A DNA stretch of 49,939 nt, taken from Candidatus Thorarchaeota archaeon. GTDB taxonomy: Archaea; Asgardarchaeota; Thorarchaeia; Thorarchaeales; Thorarchaeaceae. The notes under the pieces are model-generated. The model was not told the DNA's origin and made no database searches. It saw only the letters and a program-made list of their open reading frames with translations. The stretch's first letter is position 1. Every line of letters starts with the position of its first letter. Positions 2 to 35,900 of this stretch are shown piece by piece. The DNA lies in contig JAOUFI010000012.1 in the NCBI GenBank assembly GCA_029858305.1, positions 1 through 49,939 on the forward strand. The letters run 5' to 3'. Both the position numbers and the translations under genes were made by a program.

Positions 2-2565
<2,564 letters not shown>

Positions 2566-2662
2566 TAAGTCACATCAGAGAGACCACTGCGGAAGCATTA
2601 AAACCTAAATCCATTAGACGCAACCTATACGGGTCCCCGACAATTATAATGAGGTCCATACA

Positions 2663-2956
2663 ATGAGCCTGAATCAACCAATAGCAAGTGCTGTAAACAC
2701 AGGAAAATGTAGAATCGGTGTAAACTCCTCAATATCCTCAATCAAGAAGGGTGAAGCTAAACTGGTAGTTGTTGCTGCTAACTGCCCGAAAGAAGAATAT
2801 GAAGATATTGAAAGATATGCCCAACTAGCTCAAATCAAAGTTCAAAGATTTGATGGAACATCATGGGATCTAGGTGAGGTTGTTGGAAAACCATTCATGG
2901 TTTCCGCTATCGCTATAATTGAGCCTGGTGATTCCAAGATTCTGAAGATGGTTTGA
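2663..2956 (+). CDS. rpl30e: 50S ribosomal protein L30e
   Basis: L7Ae/L30e fold (AKLVVVAANCP, LGEVVGKPF, IIEPGDSKIL); conserved position after rpoA2. Confidence 0.96.
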   Translation: MSLNQPIASAVNTGKCRIGVNSSISSIKKGEAKLVVVAANCPKEEYEDIERYAQLAQIKVQRFDGTSWDLGEVVGKPFMVSAIAIIEPGDSKILKMV

Positions 2957-2966
2957 GGCGATTTTT

Positions 2967-3401
2967 TTGACCCGTGTAAAGCTCTCAATGGATGATATGG
3001 GCTTAATCGCTCGCTTTGAACAGATTACAGGAGTTTCTGCAGTCGACATTGTCCGGGATGATGATGGGGAGCGAATCATTGTTGTTGTTCGAGCAAAGCA
3101 GCTGGGAAAAGCAATAGGGAAAGGTGGTATCAACGTTAAAGCAGCATCTGATGCTTTTGGAAGAGCTATCGATGTAGTAGAAATGGCTGATACTGCAGAA
3201 GACTTCGTAAAAAGCGCTCTTGCACCTGCTCGAGTTGAGGCTGTGAAAATCATTGAACATAGAGATGGTACTAAGGTAGCATCCGTCACTGTGAAGAGTG
3301 ATGATCGTGGTATTGCCATTGGCCGTGATGGAAGAAATGTAGCTCGTGCTCGCATCCTGGTAAAGCGACATTTTGATTTGAACAATGTAGTAATTGCTTA
3401 G
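2967..3401 (+). CDS. nusA: Archaeal NusA (two KH domains)
   Basis: GKAIGKGGINV and GIAIGRDGRNV KH GxxG loops; canonical synteny rpl30e-nusA-rps12. Confidence 0.95.
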   Translation: MTRVKLSMDDMGLIARFEQITGVSAVDIVRDDDGERIIVVVRAKQLGKAIGKGGINVKAASDAFGRAIDVVEMADTAEDFVKSALAPARVEAVKIIEHRDGTKVASVTVKSDDRGIAIGRDGRNVARARILVKRHFDLNNVVIA

Positions 3402-8103: not shown

Positions 8104-8523
8104 ATGATGAATGATGATTCTTACGACCCCTACCAACAAGAATCGTTTCAGAATAGAGGAAGATGGATTGTCTTTGTAGCAGCCCTTATCTTGGGTGTTC
8201 TAGGCATCTATGGTATTATCATCAGCACACCTCTTGATATGATCTTTCTCTATACGTTTCTCTATGTTCCCATAGTAATATTCCTGCTTTATGCGACATT
8301 TAGATGGGCACAGGGTCGGTCAATTGCTCCCACTGATATTTCAGAGGATGATAGAATATTGGCTTCAATGAAGAAACATGCACTTCCAGTTGAGAGTGAT
8401 TCTCTAAGTGGCATGATTGGGTGTGACAACTGTGGAATGGATTTTGACATAAGTAATGCAACACCTGTCGAAAAGGATGTCTATCTTTGCCCATATTGCA
8501 AGACACGGCTTCATATAGAATAG
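8104..8523 (+). CDS. Hypothetical 2-TM membrane protein with C-terminal zinc ribbon
   Basis: Two hydrophobic helices, then CDNC...CPYC. Confidence 0.8.
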   Translation: MMNDDSYDPYQQESFQNRGRWIVFVAALILGVLGIYGIIISTPLDMIFLYTFLYVPIVIFLLYATFRWAQGRSIAPTDISEDDRILASMKKHALPVESDSLSGMIGCDNCGMDFDISNATPVEKDVYLCPYCKTRLHIE

Positions 8524-8610
8524 TCCCAGATGCATTCTCTTGCTCTTGTACCAATATCTAGGTAGTCACGTCTTGTGACTTCATCTTGTGTCCCTCAGAA
8601 GTGGCTTCGC

Positions 8611-8618
8611 TATATATA
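8611..8618 (+). promoter_or_regulatory. Putative TATA box of the small-peptide operon
   Basis: TATATATA starting 40 nt before ATG 8651; inverted repeat AGTCAC-N5-GTGACT at 8564-8580 further upstream. Confidence 0.6.
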
Positions 8619-8650
8619 CTAATTCTGAGCAGTATTTCTTGTGAACTATT

Positions 8651-8752
8651 ATGGCTCTGACAACTAACAACCGAACTGAACGCGTGCACAAGCACAATCG
8701 CAATCCCCTCTCCACCGAGGCTGTAGCATACGCATATCTCTACAGGAGGTAA
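8651..8752 (+). CDS. Small peptide 1 (33 aa) MALTTNNRTERVHKHNRNPLSTEAVAYAYLYRR
   Basis: ATG..TAA; paralogous to the next two ORFs; below the ORF-track size cutoff. Confidence 0.85.
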   Translation: MALTTNNRTERVHKHNRNPLSTEAVAYAYLYRR

Positions 8753-8759
8753 TTCAAGC

Positions 8760-8849
8760 ATGGCGCTCGCTAAGACTATTAAAATCAAGACACCCAAGGC
8801 GCTGGTTTCAACTGATGCTCTAACCTATGCTTACTTGTATCGGAGGTAA
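8760..8849 (+). CDS. Small peptide 2 (29 aa) MALAKTIKIKTPKALVSTDALTYAYLYRR
   Basis: ATG..TAA; SD GGAGGT formed by the preceding Arg-Arg-stop codons; synonymous divergence from paralogues. Confidence 0.87.
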   Translation: MALAKTIKIKTPKALVSTDALTYAYLYRR

Positions 8850-8855
8850 AACATT

Positions 8856-8945
8856 ATGGCTCTTACAAAGAATATCCAGAGAAAAGATTCAAGCAAGCTC
8901 ATCTCGACTGACGCACTAATCTACGCTTATTCCTACAGGCGGTGA
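8856..8945 (+). CDS. Small peptide 3 (29 aa) MALTKNIQRKDSSKLISTDALIYAYSYRR
   Basis: ATG..TGA; SD GGAGGT from the end of peptide 2; same conserved termini. Confidence 0.87.
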   Translation: MALTKNIQRKDSSKLISTDALIYAYSYRR

Positions 8946-8990
8946 GGTAGAAGGCTACCTCTCGTCTTCTAGTTTTGTATACTTCTTTCG
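8944..8990 (+). terminator. Hairpin plus T-rich tract ending the peptide operon
   Basis: GAGGTAG-AAGG-CTACCTC (8944-8961) followed by TCTTCTAGTTTTG..TTCTTT. Confidence 0.65.
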
Positions 8991-9028: not shown

Positions 9029-9144
<116 letters not shown>

Positions 9145-9330
9145 ATGAGTGATTTTCTCGAAGACTGTGATTCTCTCATAAACATTGTGACAAAGATATT
9201 TTCTCAGATGGTGGAAAGTATAAGGAGTGAAATTTTTCCCTCTGCTATTGCCATATCATCACACTTTTAGTTACGCGCAATGTGCAATTTTGTATATAGA
9301 GTAGAAATAAGGAGTAAAGGAGCTAATAAT

Positions 9331-9876
9331 ATGGTACTACCAGTTGGTCCACTCATGATTGAACATCGGCTGATTGAACGTATGATATCAATCATGGGGA
9401 AAGAGATTAAGCGGATACAGAAGAATAGAGATGTAGACCCCAAATTTATCGATACTGCAGTAAACTTCATTCGAACCTATGCTGATCAGTGCCACCACGG
9501 AAAGGAAGAGAAGATTCTGTTTCGTGACCTGCAGAAAAAGAAACTCAAGCCAGACGATAAACAAATCATGGACGAACTGATTCATGAACACATACTGGGT
9601 AGAACACTCACTGGTCAACTTGTCGAAGCTAAGAGCAAGTTCATAACTGGAGAGAAAACAGCTCTTGCAACTATAATAAACCTCATGCAACAACTCGTGG
9701 ACTTCTATCCAAAGCATATTGAGAAAGAGGATAAGATCTTCTTCAAGTCAGCAATGAAATATTTCACAACTGCAGAGAAAGATGCGATGTTAGACGAAGA
9801 GTACGAGTTTGACAAGAAATTCATTCATGTGATTTACAGAAACGTCGTAGCAGAGGCTGAACAGGCGTTCAGCTAA
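9331..9876 (+). CDS. Hemerythrin HHE cation-binding domain protein
   Basis: EHRLI, CHHGKEE, HEH, HIEKED metal-ligand pattern; ATG 9331 has GGAG upstream. Confidence 0.9.
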   Translation: MVLPVGPLMIEHRLIERMISIMGKEIKRIQKNRDVDPKFIDTAVNFIRTYADQCHHGKEEKILFRDLQKKKLKPDDKQIMDELIHEHILGRTLTGQLVEAKSKFITGEKTALATIINLMQQLVDFYPKHIEKEDKIFFKSAMKYFTTAEKDAMLDEEYEFDKKFIHVIYRNVVAEAEQAFS

Positions 9877-9887
9877 ATCAGAAGAGG

Positions 9888-10203
9888 TGCGACGGCTCCT
9901 TGATTTCGAATGTCGGTAGTCGGAAGGCAAATCAGTGCATTTCTCAATGCGGCAACCTCCTGGGCTCCATCACTCTTCCTTAGGGCTGTTCCCGCCAGGG
10001 CCTGACCCAGTTCGAAAGTTTATGACAATCACAACAAACCTACGAATGCTGCTATGTCCGTGACAGACTCAAGAGACCGCACGTCAACGTCCTGCGACTG
10101 GACCTACCGATGTTCCGGTTCATCCTTAATGTTGGTTACTAGCTCCGGCTATTGCCATTACCGGTGACAGGTCGCGGCAAACGACCCAGCCCTACCCGTC
10201 GCA
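9888..10203 (-). ncRNA. ffs: Archaeal SRP (7S) RNA
   Basis: Terminal helix TGCGACGG/CCGTCGCA; Alu domain with two hairpins, complementary loops TTGCC/GGCAA and a UGU motif; helix 8 GGGTCAGGCCC-TGGC-GGGAACAGCCC; about 316 nt. Confidence 0.93.
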
Positions 10204-25778: not shown

Positions 25779-28593
25779 ACTGTAGCTCTCCTTTGGCAAT
25801 TGCTCTTAGGATATCAAGTCTTTCTGTTAGTCCGGGCTCAAGAATTCGTGATGCAGTGGTTGCACCAATACCACGCCCCGCCAATACTAGGAGCGCATTT
25901 TTTCCATACCTTGAAACAAGTTCTGCTGTAAGCACCGCTGCTTTGTACCTCTTCTCTTCACTCCTTGTAAGGGATTCTCCTCTAACACGTTTAGCAATCA
26001 ACTTTGTGAAGTCCTTTTCCGAAATTGAGAGCACCGCTATCATTTTCGAACCGCAAATAGGGCATTCAACTGTTTCCTCGAAGGTTGATATGGTTCTGAC
26101 AGAATCCCAGTGACCTTGAGCCATGCAGACCATCCTAAACTGCTTAGTTAGAAGACGTTCCTCCATCATCCGTAGTACTTCGTTCTCTTCAGTTATCTCT
26201 CCTATTACCTCAAAACGCGTCTTCTCTTCTATGATGAGTCGTGCAAGAGGTGAAGGCTTTGCAGTTTTGACCACATGGATTTTTAATTCGCCTTTAGAGA
26301 ATCTAGTAAAGACCTCTAGGGCTCGTTTCTGATCCATTTTTTCTTCGAGGACTTCACGCATAGCCTCATCGAACACTGGTGTTCCTTCGAATGATTTAAT
26401 GAGATATTTCACTGGAATTTCTTTGGATTTTGCTTCTTTTCGAATAACGTCCATCTTTCTTGCTACATGCACAAATCTTGAGGCAAAATTCTGTGTATGC
26501 TTTACTGCTAATTCTAGAATATGTGATGCCTGATTGGCCGAATACTCTCGCAACACATCAAGTAAGTGCTCCGGATTAATCTCTTCACTCGAGGTGAATA
26601 AGATTCGATATGGATCTCTTTCAACGGCCACACCAATACCAAGCCGTGTTGTTAGAAGTGAAGCGATTACAATTCCTAGGGTTTCATTAGCCCTAGTTCC
26701 AAGTGGTGCATGAAGAATGATACCCGTTCCACATATTTCGAGAATGAATTTGTCTGCAGAAGGAAGGTCACCCAAAACATCCATGGTTTCATTGATAGTT
26801 TCAATAATGTGGTTCTGAGCGTGCCCAGACACTCCATACTCATGATTAAGCCACCTCCTAAATTCTCTATCCTCTTTGGTCATAACTAAATTCCATACTT
26901 TCGCTACTTCTGTAGCCACTTCATATGGAACAGGAATCATCTCTCCCACCCACCGAGGTGCATCAATATCAATACTTGTTACTGGTGAACACATCACCTC
27001 TCCACTACTCTCATCCACACTTACAACAGTCCAAGGTCTACCTCGAATAACAAACACTGAGCCCGCCTCAACATTTGCAGTAACATAGTCCTCGTCCAGG
27101 ACTCCTATAGAGGTCCTAGTGGTAATATCCACCGCGTTGACCTGTTTAATATCAGGAATCGTACTTAATCGTTCATAATAGAACATGCGTGTTCTTGAAC
27201 TCTTAGAAATTCTTGAACCATTTATTTCCAAAAGTCTTCGTCCCGCCATGAACTGGAGAAGCGTGTCCATCTCAGAATTGGATATATCCGAAAAGGGATA
27301 CGCATTTCTCACTAATTCCTGAAGCTCAGGCCTCTCAATTTCACCAACATCCAATAAAAATCCTGAAATCTGATGTCCAAGAACGTCCCACGCTTTCATT
27401 GGGATTCTTGCGTCTTCGACCTTATTCTGCCGAGCTCTTCTGATTATCACACCTGATTCAACTATATCATCAAGATTAATTGTTGAAATTACAATCCCTT
27501 TTGAGGTGCGGCCCACTCCATGACCCGACCTTCCAACACGCTGTACTAGTCTTGAAACTTCTCTAGGGGATGAATATTGAATTACTAGATCTGCTTGCCC
27601 AATATCAATACCAAGCTCCAGACTTGATGTAGCGATTATTGCTTTTGAGCTTCCATTCTTCAGGCGATCTTCTGCAGTCAGTCGAGCATTCTTTGATAAT
27701 GACCCATGATGAACATCAAACTCAAGAGATGGTTTTAATGCTCGCATCTTAACACCAAGGACCTCTGCAAAAGACCTCGTATTGGTGAATACTAGTACTG
27801 AGTTATGAGTTTCAATCAATTGAATTATCTCTTCGAGTCTTGCAACAGAGGGCCCTGGATAGGATATCTTTCTACCAAGTGTCTTATCCCGGTCGGTTGG
27901 CAAAGGCATATCCACTTTTAGGTCCAATTTTTGATTATCATAACCCGCCCATAGCGTCTTGATGGGTTCTGCTCCACTAAGGAGTTTAGCGACCTCGTCT
28001 GGATTTCCCACTGTTGCTGAGAGCCCAATTCGTTGGATTTTCGTACTCACCAGTCGCTGCAACCGCTCAAGACCCAAACTGAGTTGCACTCCTCTTTTAC
28101 TACCAGCTAAATCATGAACTTCATCGACTACTACTGCAAAAACAGTCTTCAGATGGTACTGCAGTCTTTTTCCAGGAAGAATCGCTTGTAAAGACTCTGG
28201 CGTAGTAATTAACAGATTGGGAGGCTTGATTGCTTGTTTTCTTCTAGCATATTGTGTTGTATCACCATGTCTAACATCTACGGTGAGCCCCAAGTGCATG
28301 CATAGTTCTTCAATCCTCTTGAACACATCGCGGTTTAAAGCTCTGAGAGGAGTAATATATATGATATAGAATCCGAATAGTTCTCCTCTCTTTGACATTT
28401 GTTGTAGTTTACTAAGTAGTGGGATGATTGCTGCTTCAGTCTTCCCAGTACCAGTAGGTGCTAGAAGGAGACTGTTCATACTATCATTGAGTATGAAAGG
28501 TATTGCCTTCTCCTGAATCGGTGTAGGTTTAACTATACCCTTCGATTTGAGAAAGGCTACAATATCCTTGCTCAGTGGAGTTGGGACGCTCAT
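25753..28593 (-). CDS. lhr: Lhr-family SF2 helicase with C-terminal zinc-binding region
   Basis: APTGTGKT, YITPLRALNRD, DEVH, HHGSLS, SSLELGIDIG, QRVGRSGH; CPICGS. Confidence 0.93.
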   Translation of the reverse strand: MSVPTPLSKDIVAFLKSKGIVKPTPIQEKAIPFILNDSMNSLLLAPTGTGKTEAAIIPLLSKLQQMSKRGELFGFYIIYITPLRALNRDVFKRIEELCMHLGLTVDVRHGDTTQYARRKQAIKPPNLLITTPESLQAILPGKRLQYHLKTVFAVVVDEVHDLAGSKRGVQLSLGLERLQRLVSTKIQRIGLSATVGNPDEVAKLLSGAEPIKTLWAGYDNQKLDLKVDMPLPTDRDKTLGRKISYPGPSVARLEEIIQLIETHNSVLVFTNTRSFAEVLGVKMRALKPSLEFDVHHGSLSKNARLTAEDRLKNGSSKAIIATSSLELGIDIGQADLVIQYSSPREVSRLVQRVGRSGHGVGRTSKGIVISTINLDDIVESGVIIRRARQNKVEDARIPMKAWDVLGHQISGFLLDVGEIERPELQELVRNAYPFSDISNSEMDTLLQFMAGRRLLEINGSRISKSSRTRMFYYERLSTIPDIKQVNAVDITTRTSIGVLDEDYVTANVEAGSVFVIRGRPWTVVSVDESSGEVMCSPVTSIDIDAPRWVGEMIPVPYEVATEVAKVWNLVMTKEDREFRRWLNHEYGVSGHAQNHIIETINETMDVLGDLPSADKFILEICGTGIILHAPLGTRANETLGIVIASLLTTRLGIGVAVERDPYRILFTSSEEINPEHLLDVLREYSANQASHILELAVKHTQNFASRFVHVARKMDVIRKEAKSKEIPVKYLIKSFEGTPVFDEAMREVLEEKMDQKRALEVFTRFSKGELKIHVVKTAKPSPLARLIIEEKTRFEVIGEITEENEVLRMMEERLLTKQFRMVCMAQGHWDSVRTISTFEETVECPICGSKMIAVLSISEKDFTKLIAKRVRGESLTRSEEKRYKAAVLTAELVSRYGKNALLVLAGRGIGATTASRILEPGLTERLDILRAIAKGELQYERTRPYW

Positions 28594-32908: not shown

Positions 32909-35900
32909 GTGATAGAACTCGAACATGACCTTCCAGCTCATAGTATCAGCTACAAGCAGTACTTCGATTCCTTGAATCAAGAAGTCACGAGAATATATGC
33001 TATAGCAGAGGAGGCGCGGTCAAAGGGGTTTGATCCAACCCTGCGGGTCGAGATACCTCCCGCACATGATGTTGCAGCCCGTGTTGAGGCCACATTGGAA
33101 GGTCCATTTGGTGTGGCAAAAAGAATTCGGGAATTGCAGAAGGGCAAGTCCCGAGAAGAGGTTGCATTTGCTGTTGCAAAAGAGATAGCTGAGGGAACAC
33201 TTGGCAATATCACTGAATCTGAAAAAGCTGCTGAGAAAGCGGTACGAGTTGCCTTGGCCATTCTAACAGAGAGTATCACCGCGGCCCCAATTGAGGGTAT
33301 TGCAAATGTGAAAATACGTGGCTCTGAAAAAGAAGGAAATCAGTATCTTGCGCTCTATCTTGCTGGTCCAATTCGGGCAGCTGGGGGAACCGAGGCTGCA
33401 ATGACTGTTCTTGTGGCTGATTATGTTCGACAAGTACTGAAACTTCCACCATACAAGTCGACTCCTGAAGAAACAGAACGAGCAATTGAAGAAGTAGAGC
33501 TTTATGCACGGAATGTACATCTTCAATACCCAGTTCACCCAGACCTTATCCGGTTTGCAGCAGAAAGACTTCCAATCATGCTAACTGGAGAGCCCACAGA
33601 AGAGTTTGAGGTATCAGGTAGCAGAGATTTGGACCGTATTGAAACAAATCGCGTACGCGGGGGATCTGTCCTTGTCTTGAGTGATGGAGTTGTAGGAAGG
33701 GCTACGAAGTTAGCAAAAATCGTTCACGACGCGAACATTAAGGGTTGGGAATGGTTGGATGAACTTGCTGCAAAAATGTCCAAGGCTAAAGCCCTAGAAG
33801 ATGAAGATAGTGCGGATAAGAAACTTGAACCCAAGTATGACTACTTGTCAGATGTGATTGGTGGAAGACCTGTTTTCTCTCATCCGTCCCGACCTGGTGG
33901 CTTCCGACTGAGGTATGGTCGGTCCCGAAATACAGGCTTGGCAGGAGTGGGAATTCATCCAGCTACCATGTATATCCTTGAAGAATTCCTAGCGACTGGA
34001 ACTCATATTCGTACTGAACGCCCTGGAAAGGGATCGATTGTTGCTCCCGTTGATTCCATTGAAGGTCCAATCGTACTCTTTAAGGATGGTTCTGTCACTC
34101 GATTCTCGCGTCTAGATGATGCCCGTGGTCTTGAAGGTAAAGTAAAGAAGATTCTCTTTTTGGGTGACATTCTTGTGGCATTGGGTGAGTTTCTAGAAAA
34201 TAATCACCCGCTCGTTCCCTCAGGTTATTGTGAGGAATGGTGGTCTCATGATCTCGAAAACGCAATCTCCTCAATTACAAAGATGCAGCTGACAAAAAAA
34301 CTGACCAAGTCTGGTCTTACTGCGGACGATATTAACAAGTTCATTGAATCTCCTCTTGCTCACATACCCTCTCCCACTCAAGCTTTTCATCTATCTAAGA
34401 AACTAAAGGTGCCATTGCATCCATTTTACCTCTATAGGTGGACTGTCCTCTCTGTCAATGAGCTACAAGACCTTCGTGATTGGCTGCTTGGTACAAATAT
34501 GACTGAAACAACAACCGAAGGAGAACGGATAGTCCTCCCTTCCGATAAATCTCATAAATCTCTGCTTGAAAAAGTAGGTATTCCACATAGACTTACGAAA
34601 GATAAGAAAAGAATAGTTCTGACAGATGAACCAATCGCCGTTTTAGCACAAATTGGAAACACGTCAAAGCAGCCAAAAGGGGAAACGGCTTTAGATTATC
34701 TTAACTCAGTTTCACAAGTGCAACTCAGGGACAAAAATGGTTTTTCGATTGGTGCTAGGATGGGGCGACCTGAGAAAGCTGAGGCACGGAAGATGAAACC
34801 TCCAGTTCAAGTTTTATTCCCTGTTGGTCGCTCCAAAGGTACAGAGAGAAGAATGGAAGAGGTTGCCAAAAATGTTCAGTACATCTCCACGCTAGATGCC
34901 TTCGATGAAGCTAATTACAACGGTGAGATATCACCTGAAGTTTCTGGCGTGGAAGTTGAGCTTGTAACTCGAGCCTGCCCTAATTGCGGTTTCAAAACCT
35001 ACGAGTCAAGATGCTTCAAATGCGGCAATCATACAGAAATAGAAGCACGGTGCGCGGAGGAAGGATGCGGTCGTATTATTGATTCTACAACAAATAGGTG
35101 CCCAATAAGTACACATCTTAATCCGAAGCATATGACGACAAGAACGCTCTCAGTAGATTTGAAAGCAGAACTCGACCGAGCTAAGGTCGAGGTTGGAGAG
35201 TTTGAAACACATGGACTCAGGGGAGTCCTTGGCCTCACGAATAGTAACAAAATCCCCGAGTATTTAGGAAAAGGCATTCTTCGTGCGAAACATGATGTGT
35301 ATTGTTACAGGGATGGGACAGCTCGTTTTGATGCTACAGACGCTCCACTAACACATTTTACACCGAAGGAGATTAGCGTCCCAGTCAGTCGTCTTAGAGA
35401 TTTGGGGTATGTTACAGACTATGATGGAGCACCCCTTAACTCAGAAAATCAGATTTTGGAAATCAAAGTACAGGATATCATTGTATCGGAAAAATGTGGA
35501 GACTATCTTTTACGTGTTGGAAGATTTATTGATGATTGTTTAGAAAAAATCTATGGTCTAGAAAGGCACTATAATTTCAATTCTCAAGACGATATTATAG
35601 GGCAGCTAGTTATTGGTCTCGCTCCACATACATCTGCTGGAATAATTGGTAGAATAATCGGATTCACATCTTCAAGTGTCTGCTACGCCCATCCGTATTG
35701 GCATGCTGCAAAACGAAGGAATTGTGATGGTGATGAAGATGCTTTAATCTTGGTTCTTGATGCACTCTTGAACTTCTCTAAACACTATCTACCTGCAGGT
35801 CGTGGCGGTCTAATGGATGCTCCTCTAGTTCTCTCAGTCATTTTGAATCCCAAAGAGGTTGATGACGAGAGCCATAACATGGAGGTGTGTAGACGATATC

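Follow-up and report, generated by a model that had tools for sequence, protein, structure and literature searches.

Does a tandem of three very short open reading frames (ORFs) in an archaeal genome encode real proteins and, if so, what might these do? The question is raised by positions 8651–8945 of contig JAOUFI010000012.1 of a Candidatus Thorarchaeota archaeon (assembly GCA_029858305.1), of which a stretch of 49,939 nucleotides (nt), referred to here as the window, was analysed. On its forward strand, cistron 1 (8651–8752) encodes a 33-amino-acid (aa) peptide of A type, and cistrons 2 (8760–8849) and 3 (8856–8945) each encode a 29-aa peptide of B type; the gaps between them are 7 and 6 nt, and all three are present in the ORF list and match the family profile described below (E = 2.4e-18, 3.8e-18 and 1e-19, respectively). 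A preliminary description of the locus had given the same coordinates, gaps and translations, and the synonymous codon differences which it quoted for residues shared by the peptides (Ser tcc/tca/tcg, Tyr tac/tat, Arg-Arg aggagg/cggagg/aggcgg, stop codons taa/taa/tga) are found in the sequence as it stated, the DNA of the three cistrons being 67% identical by column. We conclude from the evidence collected below that all three ORFs are real genes, each translated separately, and that their products are cationic microproteins belonging to a lineage-specific family.

The array is far beyond a chance occurrence, since a profile built from its three peptides recovers 11 further copies in the same genome (handle G000; 3.04 Mb on 205 contigs, 88.9% complete), where the window locus lies on contig C50. 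Searched with one iteration against 99,761 stop-to-stop segments, this profile yielded 14 members with E-values from 1.7e-16 to 6e-8, the next match having E = 1.6, and three rounds of iteration still returned 14. The members are distributed over six loci, with three genes each on C50, C119 and C62, two each on C205 and C155, and one on C32, so that arrays of the family hold one to three genes.

Profile searches of further archaeal genomes, which the preliminary description had proposed, delimit the family taxonomically. At E ≤ 0.01, the 14-member profile matches all 24 other genomes of the genus (4–13 matches apiece) and none of 16 genomes from 13 other families. A sample of the order, covering 15 further genera, gave matches in 56 of 59 genomes of the same GTDB family, the three match-less ones being 92, 77 and 73% complete, and no match in the single genome of a sister family. 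In a sample of the phylum, searched at E ≤ 1e-4, 21 of 26 genomes of the GTDB family match, as against 0 of 124 genomes from 26 other Asgard families. Among the genomes searched, the family thus appears limited to one GTDB family of Thorarchaeia, where it is kept in at least 16 genera at a copy number of about 4–14.

The preliminary description had not recognised the family, and it is indeed undescribed in the major collections: for all 14 members, Pfam and NCBIfam returned no family and PDB no sequence at E ≤ 10, and a protein atlas search gave no usable match. A scan of 1.84 billion representative proteins produced 49 matches at E ≤ 1e-3, of which 45 are family peptides of 28–103 aa with the same motif; the remaining long matches (P0001, P0008, P0045 and P0047) are tandem-repeat artefacts and were dropped. 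The few recorded relatives are unnamed or titled ‘hypothetical protein’, and the three exact window peptides are absent among about 15 billion predicted proteins. The longest relative, P0036 (103 aa), resembles over its first ~68 residues the N-terminus of a neighbouring gene product with an ATC-hydrolase domain (locus 3, see below) and carries an A-type peptide as its last 35; it could be a chimera of gene calling or assembly, or a rearrangement. A viral or mobile origin was considered and rejected, with no confirmed relative in viral contigs for the patterns used. Listings and abstracts of the literature on small proteins of Thorarchaeota, Asgard and Archaea in general, and on Asgard ribosomally synthesised and post-translationally modified peptides (RiPPs), contain no description of the family, supplementary files excluded; passages of one paper (PMC12144867) mention RiPP clusters for the Asgard superphylum in general terms.

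That selection acts on the peptide, and does not merely preserve a DNA repeat, had been proposed from the three window ORFs and is borne out by the family at large. Codon usage was analysed for 74 distinct genes, a convenience sample from which the script dropped rows without a start near the expected place or running off the locus. The single invariant residue, an Ala, is encoded by GCT in 38, GCA in 20, GCC in 7 and GCG in 9 of these; a second Ala, present in 72, likewise uses four codons, as do the Ser and the Thr of the cap described below. The ratio of nonsynonymous to synonymous substitution rates (dN/dS) is 0.36 for the 13–15 alignment columns of the C-terminus, 0.94 for the N-terminal part together with the middle and 0.63 overall, these figures being descriptive since the 347 underlying pairs (pS, the proportion of synonymous differences, 0.05–0.5) are non-independent and mix orthologues with paralogues. 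Differences number 3083, 2550 and 4184 at first, second and third codon positions. Reading frames are open, with no internal stops, in every copy listed for genus and order, across 16 genera, and past the promoter the paralogues diverge in DNA while the peptide motif persists.

Two parts of the peptides are constrained, namely the ‘MAL’ start, which is kept with varying codons also in non-first cistrons, and a C-terminal motif [ST]-T-[DEQ]-A-[LIV]-x-[YHW]-A-[YF]-x-Y-R-R. Otherwise the peptides, of 26–35 aa and with a net charge of +3 to +8 (median +5), have a middle region which drifts yet stays basic and is rich in Asn, Thr, Lys and Arg; a single Cys occurs among 74 peptides. The AlphaFold2 model obtained with a 49-sequence alignment contains a helix at residues 22–31 of 33, with a mean predicted local distance difference test score (pLDDT) of 91 over residues 21–30; the N-terminal two thirds are of low confidence, with a second helix at residues 8–15 having pLDDT ~60. 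The two freely varying positions of the motif are spaced i and i+4 and therefore, in our reading of the alignments, lie on one face of the helix. By the same reading, the invariant Ala-x3-Ala forms the centre of the conserved face, and Ser-Thr-Asp/Glu resembles an N-cap. Such a conservation pattern is what one would expect of a short docking helix subject to stereospecific recognition. A hydrophobic N-terminal stretch, as in a signal peptide, is not visible in the alignments, and assignment to the type I toxins was rejected because the composition is polar and basic and lacks a hydrophobic transmembrane segment.

The array was also said to possess a promoter and a terminator of its own, and both assignments are upheld by the conservation of the promoter and by the fold and conservation of the hairpin. 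A TATA-like decamer, CTATATATAC, lies at 8610–8619, 32–41 nt before the first ATG, and is conserved across species; transcription is expected to start about 25 nt past it, some 10 nt ahead of that ATG. Upstream, a putative operator at 8564–8580 consists of the inverted repeat AGTCAC-N5-GTGACT (7-3-7 in paralogous loci), and between operator and TATA box a third TGTG(A/T)C half-site at 8586–8594 is kept as TGTGACCC or TGTGTCCC. An element TGTGAAC (8640–8646) ends close to the gene, 5 nt ahead of the first start codon, placing it at, or close to, the start of a very short leader. Across 28 promoters of many species, aligned after selection by script from 40 distinct upstream regions, the operator element stands at the same distance from the TATA box, and the order across species is the palindrome TAGTCACA-N3-TGTGACT, a third TGTGAC half-site, a G/C-rich element, CTATATATAC, and TGTGAA before the ATG. 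The palindrome would presumably be bound by a transcription factor. Over the 80 nt that precede the first ATG, C50 and C119 agree throughout, C205 differs at one position (79/80) and C62 has a diverged version.

At its other end, the array runs into a hairpin followed by a pyrimidine-rich tract (8944–8976), a putative terminator or 3' stabiliser whose stem (8944–8950/8955–8961; 7 bp, with a 4-nt loop) begins inside the TGA stop codon and which closes with TTTT at 8973–8976. The 50 nt comprising it (8936–8985) fold at −17.5 kcal/mol (z = −2.87; 2 of 200 shuffles equal), and a hairpin of 7–11 bp with differing stem sequences follows the last cistron in all eight orthologous loci.

Promoter and first gene of the window array have a close double elsewhere in the genome. 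Window positions 8571–8752, that is, the 80 upstream nt and the whole of cistron 1, differ by one base from positions 34713–34894 of C119, the encoded peptides differing by one amino acid; the cistrons downstream are different in the two arrays. This near-identity suggests a recent gene conversion of a cassette of promoter and first gene.

The signals for translation are likewise specific to the position of a gene in its array. The C-terminal Arg-Arg is mostly encoded by AGG AGG (34 and 41 uses), an internal Arg column having CGA in 23 of 33 cases, and together with the stop codon these codons give GGAGGTAA, 6–10 nt ahead of the next ATG. In the window array, AGGAGGT at 8744–8750 (Arg-Arg codons plus the T of the stop, 10-nt spacer) would serve as Shine-Dalgarno (SD) element for cistron 2 and GGAGGT at 8842–8847, as read from the sequence, for cistron 3. 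Of 42 non-first genes, 39 have an SD-like tetramer in their last 20 upstream nt; of the 31 genes with TGTGAA(C) in this segment, which we read as first genes of A-type arrays, 1 has one. Cistrons 2 and 3 are accordingly assigned ribosome-binding sites, whereas a very short leader is assigned to cistron 1. The claim of the preliminary description that the C-terminus is conserved therefore requires a qualification: the conservation is at the level of the peptide, but part of that of Arg-Arg is at the level of nucleotides, because AGG AGG TAA doubles as the SD element of the next cistron.

Evidence at the RNA level comes from metatranscriptome run X2 (sediment), in which one 195-nt contig covers 8687–8881 with three differences, one synonymous and two at variable residues, and lends weak support to transcription of the array. 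Runs X1, X3 and X4 do not cover 8584–8955, and since the neighbouring segments 8104–8523 and 9280–9876 have almost no cover in any run, this is uninformative.

The loci of the family are stably placed in the genome, four locus types having constant neighbours in 3–6 genomes each. At the window's own locus, the array stands between EF-1alpha and a 139-aa membrane zinc-ribbon protein (8104–8523) on one side and a hemerythrin-domain gene, aIF5B and NDK on the other (4 genomes). At the second, the array is followed by a gene for a transporter of the major facilitator superfamily (MFS), both placed between genes which, tentatively read, resemble SMC/ScpA and ScpB (6 genomes); the third has an ATC-hydrolase-domain gene, the array and an MFS gene (3 genomes), and the fourth desulfoferrodoxin, the array, a 200-aa gene and a GNAT gene (3 genomes). 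Among the 29 flanking ORFs of the six own-genome loci, Pfam identifies two MFS transporters, one of the MFS_3 ‘transmembrane secretion effector’ type, and MFS genes are co-transcribed at two of the six loci; there is no transporter or companion gene at the window's own locus. A neighbour protein common to the six loci was sought and rejected: all-against-all BLAST of 16 neighbours gave one related pair only, both in contig C155, and no zinc-ribbon partner shared across the loci.

The link to MFS transporters extends beyond the own genome. Nine of the 39 distinct array ends are followed, 4–5 nt past the stop codon, by the start of an ORF of 339 aa or more. All nine ORFs come after peptides of C type, which end in A-[YF]-[FL]-R-R; they are taken to be MFS genes on the basis of Pfam for the own-genome copy (C119, 32893–34233), homology for five clustered orthologues and N-terminal sequence for the others. 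Their position so close to the peptide stop makes coupling of MFS translation by termination and reinitiation probable. The remaining 30 array ends, that of the window included, have no co-directional long ORF within 37 nt. A profile of the promoter finds the four A-type loci of the own genome and also matches, more weakly, before other genes (C58, 6503–6591; C101, 38910–38943; C193, 5837–5885), which suggests that these genes may share a regulon with the arrays; tentatively, their products are read as an MFS-like membrane protein, a protein rich in repeats and a winged-helix protein that has membrane segments.

How, then, might the peptides act? We suggest, with a probability of about 0.42, that the C-terminal helix docks on one conserved partner and that the peptides, acting in trans and as part of a regulon that contains MFS transporters, have a binding or regulatory function. 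According to this proposal, one short tricistronic transcript would start from the array's own TATA promoter with its palindromic operator upstream and would end at the hairpin and T-tract; cistron 1 would be translated from the very short leader, and cistrons 2 and 3 by way of the SD elements made of the Arg-Arg and stop codons of the cistron before. Each product consists of the Met-Ala-Leu start, a fast-evolving and probably disordered basic middle, and an amphipathic C-terminal helix of 10–12 residues, the sole strongly constrained part, in which the Ser-Thr-Asp/Glu cap precedes the invariant Ala-x3-Ala flanked by aromatics. This helix would be the docking module for a partner common to all paralogues, and the peptides would act in the cell or at a membrane face, as members of an operator-controlled regulon that would include the MFS transporters. 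The genes themselves, the selection on them, their synteny, promoter and translational coupling and the propensity of the C-terminus to form a helix are established by the data above, whereas a partner, a site of action and a physiological role are proposed on this basis.

Two features argue for such a role in particular. A specific protein partner is favoured over a lipid because the identity of residues (Ala, Ala, Ser-Thr, aromatic) is conserved beyond mere amphipathicity, and the free peptide appears to matter because ‘MAL’ is kept with varying codons in non-first cistrons. The preliminary description had named peptides that bind one partner in signalling or inhibition as an alternative to RiPP precursors, and this alternative fits the conservation pattern better.

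A number of points weigh against the proposal. The candidate partner is inferred, and so is the accumulation or retention of the peptides inside the cell; a dN/dS of 0.36 on 13 codons, obtained from non-independent pairs with orthologues and paralogues mixed, represents only moderate constraint. A near-neutral or diversifying middle, tandem copies and positive charge are just as characteristic of RiPP precursors and of peptides secreted for antimicrobial action or signalling, and what recognises the conserved C-terminus could as well be an exporter or a modifying enzyme. The window locus itself is without transporter or companion gene, the MFS link being derived from paralogous loci, and the RNA support consists of one contig of low depth from a library that may contain DNA.

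The alternative that fares best, although we regard it as somewhat less likely, is that the peptides are exported and bioactive, either as unmodified leaderless cationic peptides or as RiPP precursors with a C-terminal follower or core and a maturase encoded elsewhere; the co-transcribed MFS protein would then be exporter or immunity factor, and an acidic companion (see below) might neutralise the cationic peptides. Tandem paralogues under a common regulated promoter, the absence of a signal peptide, the charge of +3 to +8, the dN/dS of 0.94 in the middle region and the two operons with MFS genes, one of MFS_3 type, are all in line with export. However, the amphipathic helix is modelled over only about one third of the peptide, the rest being polar, the loci belong to the core genome and are syntenic over 16 genera rather than strain-variable, and we know of no MFS transporter that carries 30-residue peptides. 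As to modification, the thioether and azoline classes are excluded by the content of one Cys in 74 peptides, and the view of the preliminary description that any maturase would have to act in trans agrees with Pfam analysis of the six own-genome loci, whose 29 flanking ORFs contain no radical S-adenosylmethionine (SAM) enzyme, P450, YcaO, peptidase or ABC exporter; P450 and YcaO also gave no match anywhere in the 88.9% complete genome.

The genome does possess one orphan enzyme of the kind that such modification would call for, and its presence speaks for the export alternative. The 487-aa protein encoded at C163, 5063–6526 on the reverse strand (L061), combines PqqD, as RiPP recognition element (RRE), with Radical_SAM and SPASM domains and is the sole RRE match of the genome; it scores below every NCBIfam equivalog cut-off (best AhbD, 148.6 bits against a cut-off of 500). 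There is no conserved small ORF upstream of its gene and no adjacent precursor gene, and in three relatives no small ORF of family 1, 2 or 3 lies within about 7 kb of it. Close orthologues (68–86% identity) occur in 20 of 26 genomes of the GTDB family, and five further Asgard families, for which the searches gave no peptides, have homologues (31–45% identity). Across 27 genomes of the GTDB family, 18 have both peptide and enzyme, 4 only the peptide, 3 only the enzyme and 2 neither, so that the enzyme is unmatched in 4 of 22 peptide-positive genomes, among them G048 (97% complete) and G058 (92%). Prediction of a complex between enzyme and peptide scored 0.00, the mark being 0.32, and speaks neither for nor against an interaction. 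Because no maturase is linked, the RRE enzyme is unlinked and imperfectly co-distributed, and YcaO and P450 were not found, aromatic cross-linking by radical-SAM or P450 enzymes, as the preliminary description had envisaged, is left as an unsupported and less probable reading.

The acidic companion mentioned above belongs to a second family of small ORFs, encoding acidic peptides of 34–40 aa with a conserved C-terminal motif, that is found behind some arrays; the window array, which ends in its hairpin, has none. The own genome holds exactly two copies, each directly behind an array (L014:6299–6412, corresponding to C205, 97198–97311; L012:6472–6594, corresponding to C155, 21971–22093), and further ones occur at L017, L019, L020, L025, L027, L035, L036, L039 and L059. 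In 11 of 12 loci the acidic ORF is in frame with the preceding basic peptide, from which it is separated by a single TAG plus 0, 1 or 2 codons (0, 3 or 6 nt), and two metagenome proteins, P0023 and P0042, are natural 70-aa fusions of a basic and an acidic part. The in-frame placement, the natural fusions and the position directly behind arrays suggest that basic and acidic peptides may cooperate physically; the arrangement could reflect local read-through of TAG or a split gene. Pyrrolysine decoding of TAG as a general recoding was rejected (PylS and PylD matches are sub-threshold, and 635 of 1764 long ORFs end in TAG, more than in any other stop codon), as was a C-terminal ‘...EAT’ as a general signal, with which only 2 of 3208 long ORFs end. 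An AlphaFold2 model of P0023 shows helices at 19–42 and 61–69 with a mean pLDDT of 68 and a predicted template modelling score of 0.31, based on 12 alignment rows of which 10 are read-through translations under TAG=Q; it makes no confident statement on helix packing and is therefore not evidence for pairing.

Two further conserved small ORFs stand close to arrays of other loci. One, of 38–39 aa with two Cys, lies between array and MFS gene at L015:6622–6738 (C62, 11021–11137), is found in three genomes and has a degenerate copy at C119, 34342–34458 on the reverse strand; its promoter contains an 8-1-8 palindrome, which recurs ahead of the C155 array. The other, of about 35 aa, is situated at about L013:6221–6330 (C32), some 130 nt upstream of the D-type peptide gene at 28351; its C-terminus has a similar Glu-x-Leu-x-Tyr-x-Tyr pattern, which the family profile misses. 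Third-position variation across seven genomes suggests that it is coding, and it may be a distant member of the family.

It is tempting to extend these observations to a two-component microprotein system of Thorarchaeia, in which cationic and acidic peptides, released by termination at TAG or occasionally joined in a self-neutralised read-through fusion, would form one operator-controlled regulon with three MFS transporters. We consider this improbable, distinctly more so than export; if true, such a system would serve peptide signalling, defence or transporter control of a kind undescribed in Archaea.

Still less probable is a role in cis, in which the ORFs would be leader, arrest or coupling ORFs and the nascent C-terminus would control the downstream gene from within the ribosome tunnel, a reading which fits members of C type only. 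The concentration of conservation in the last 13 codons, the MFS ORFs 4–5 nt past the stop codon at nine array ends and the location of the next cistron's SD element within the preceding Arg-Arg codons would all be expected from it. However, most array ends (30 of 39) have no long ORF within 37 nt to control, the window array is closed by a conserved hairpin, with a tRNA-like gene converging on it, two to three paralogues stand in a row with 14 copies per genome, and an arrest peptide would not need the ‘MAL’ start to be conserved at the amino-acid level. That the ORFs are non-functional, being either decaying remnants or frames open by chance within some repeated element of DNA or RNA, such as a small RNA or a promoter cassette copied by gene conversion, would agree with the (near-)identical 80 upstream nt of C50, C119 and C205, the near-identical first cistrons of C50 and C119 and the absence of an Rfam match at the array in a search blind to undescribed RNAs, but it is close to refuted by the frames open throughout 16 genera, the four-codon variation at conserved residues, the peak of differences at third codon positions, the SD elements before 39 of 42 internal cistrons and the divergence of paralogues which keep their motif.

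Two RNA genes in the vicinity of the array were noted in passing. In the tRNA-like gene at 9029–9144 on the reverse strand, convergent with the array, we recognise an acceptor stem, an anticodon loop with GCT and a long variable arm; CCA is encoded, and the D-arm region is lengthened by ~30 inserted nt. The gene is probably an intron-bearing tRNA-Ser(GCU); ARAGORN, with and without its intron option, and Rfam at the gathering score do not call it, and Rfam at an E-value threshold gives a partial match of 20.3 bits. An archaeal signal recognition particle (7S) RNA at 9890–10201 on the reverse strand (95.0 bits, gathering score 96.5, E = 7.9e-22) explains the RNA depth of ~2000–3000 at 9887–10149 in run X1.

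Comparison with known systems of small peptides places the family between several of them. The phenol-soluble modulin alpha operon of Staphylococcus aureus consists of tandem paralogous micropeptides of ~20–30 residues, long missed by annotation, which belong to the core genome, have no signal peptide, form amphipathic helices, are directly controlled by a transcription factor and are served by a dedicated ABC transporter. The array resembles it in tandem layout, size, missing annotation, core location, the absence of a signal peptide, the possession of an amphipathic helix and, presumably, control by a transcription factor, but is unrelated in sequence and archaeal, only the last third of its peptides being helical and the rest polar and basic; its transporter link is to MFS instead of ABC and seen at two of six loci only, and secretion of the Thorarchaeal peptides is hypothetical. 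The leaderless bacteriocins aureocin A70 and garvicin KS are operons of three or four related cationic peptides of ~30 residues, as the arrays are, but these bacteriocins are hydrophobic or amphipathic throughout and are encoded in strain-variable clusters with ABC transporters and immunity genes, unlike the syntenic core loci between housekeeping genes described here. Of the traits that define bacteriocins and modulins, the family shows small size, cationic character, tandem genes and absence of a signal peptide, but not a helix over most of the peptide.

Among RiPPs, the prochlorosins are precursors whose maturase is encoded elsewhere, and streptide, the triceptides and PqqA are cross-linked by radical-SAM/SPASM enzymes. 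With precursors served in trans the family shares many short, scattered tandem paralogues, conserved and variable parts and aromatics in the conserved part, and with radical-SAM/SPASM systems the presence of an orphan enzyme in the genome; it differs in that linkage to, or convincing co-distribution with, the enzyme is missing, the conserved part is C-terminal and no cleavage motif is recognisable. Modification of this type is hypothetical for the family.

Small proteins involved in nitrogen regulation in Methanosarcina mazei and the bacterial AcrZ, SgrT and MciZ have fewer than 50 residues and bind a larger partner, some being co-regulated with transporters; they are encoded by single-copy genes, and many are membrane helices. 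The peptides are similar in size and in their apparent co-regulation with transporters, and would be similar in binding a partner, but are encoded by multi-copy genes; to our knowledge, no 14-member small-protein family with a shared docking helix has been described. Finally, the erm and mef/mel leader peptides are encoded directly upstream of, and translationally linked to, an efflux or resistance gene, as the C-type members are to an MFS-type pump, whereas most members, the three of the window included, have no such downstream gene and also have a conserved N-terminus. As far as can be judged at the level of sequence, the family displays the full set of defining features of none of these systems, and its relatives by sequence or profile are confined to its own clade.

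The family is thus one of tandem microproteins with an inferred partner, and is new among Pfam, NCBIfam and PDB. Conserved microproteins are nearly unexplored in Archaea, and especially in Asgard, and gene callers skip them. The array provides a tractable entry, with a docking helix of 13 residues that can be synthesised, a defined operator for the search for a regulator and a clear architecture for heterologous tests. If the peptides are only a lineage-specific accessory, they are a good case of a blind spot of annotation pipelines; should a transporter, a regulator or a modifying enzyme prove to be the partner, they would represent a new layer of regulation or of secondary metabolism in the closest prokaryotic relatives of eukaryotes.

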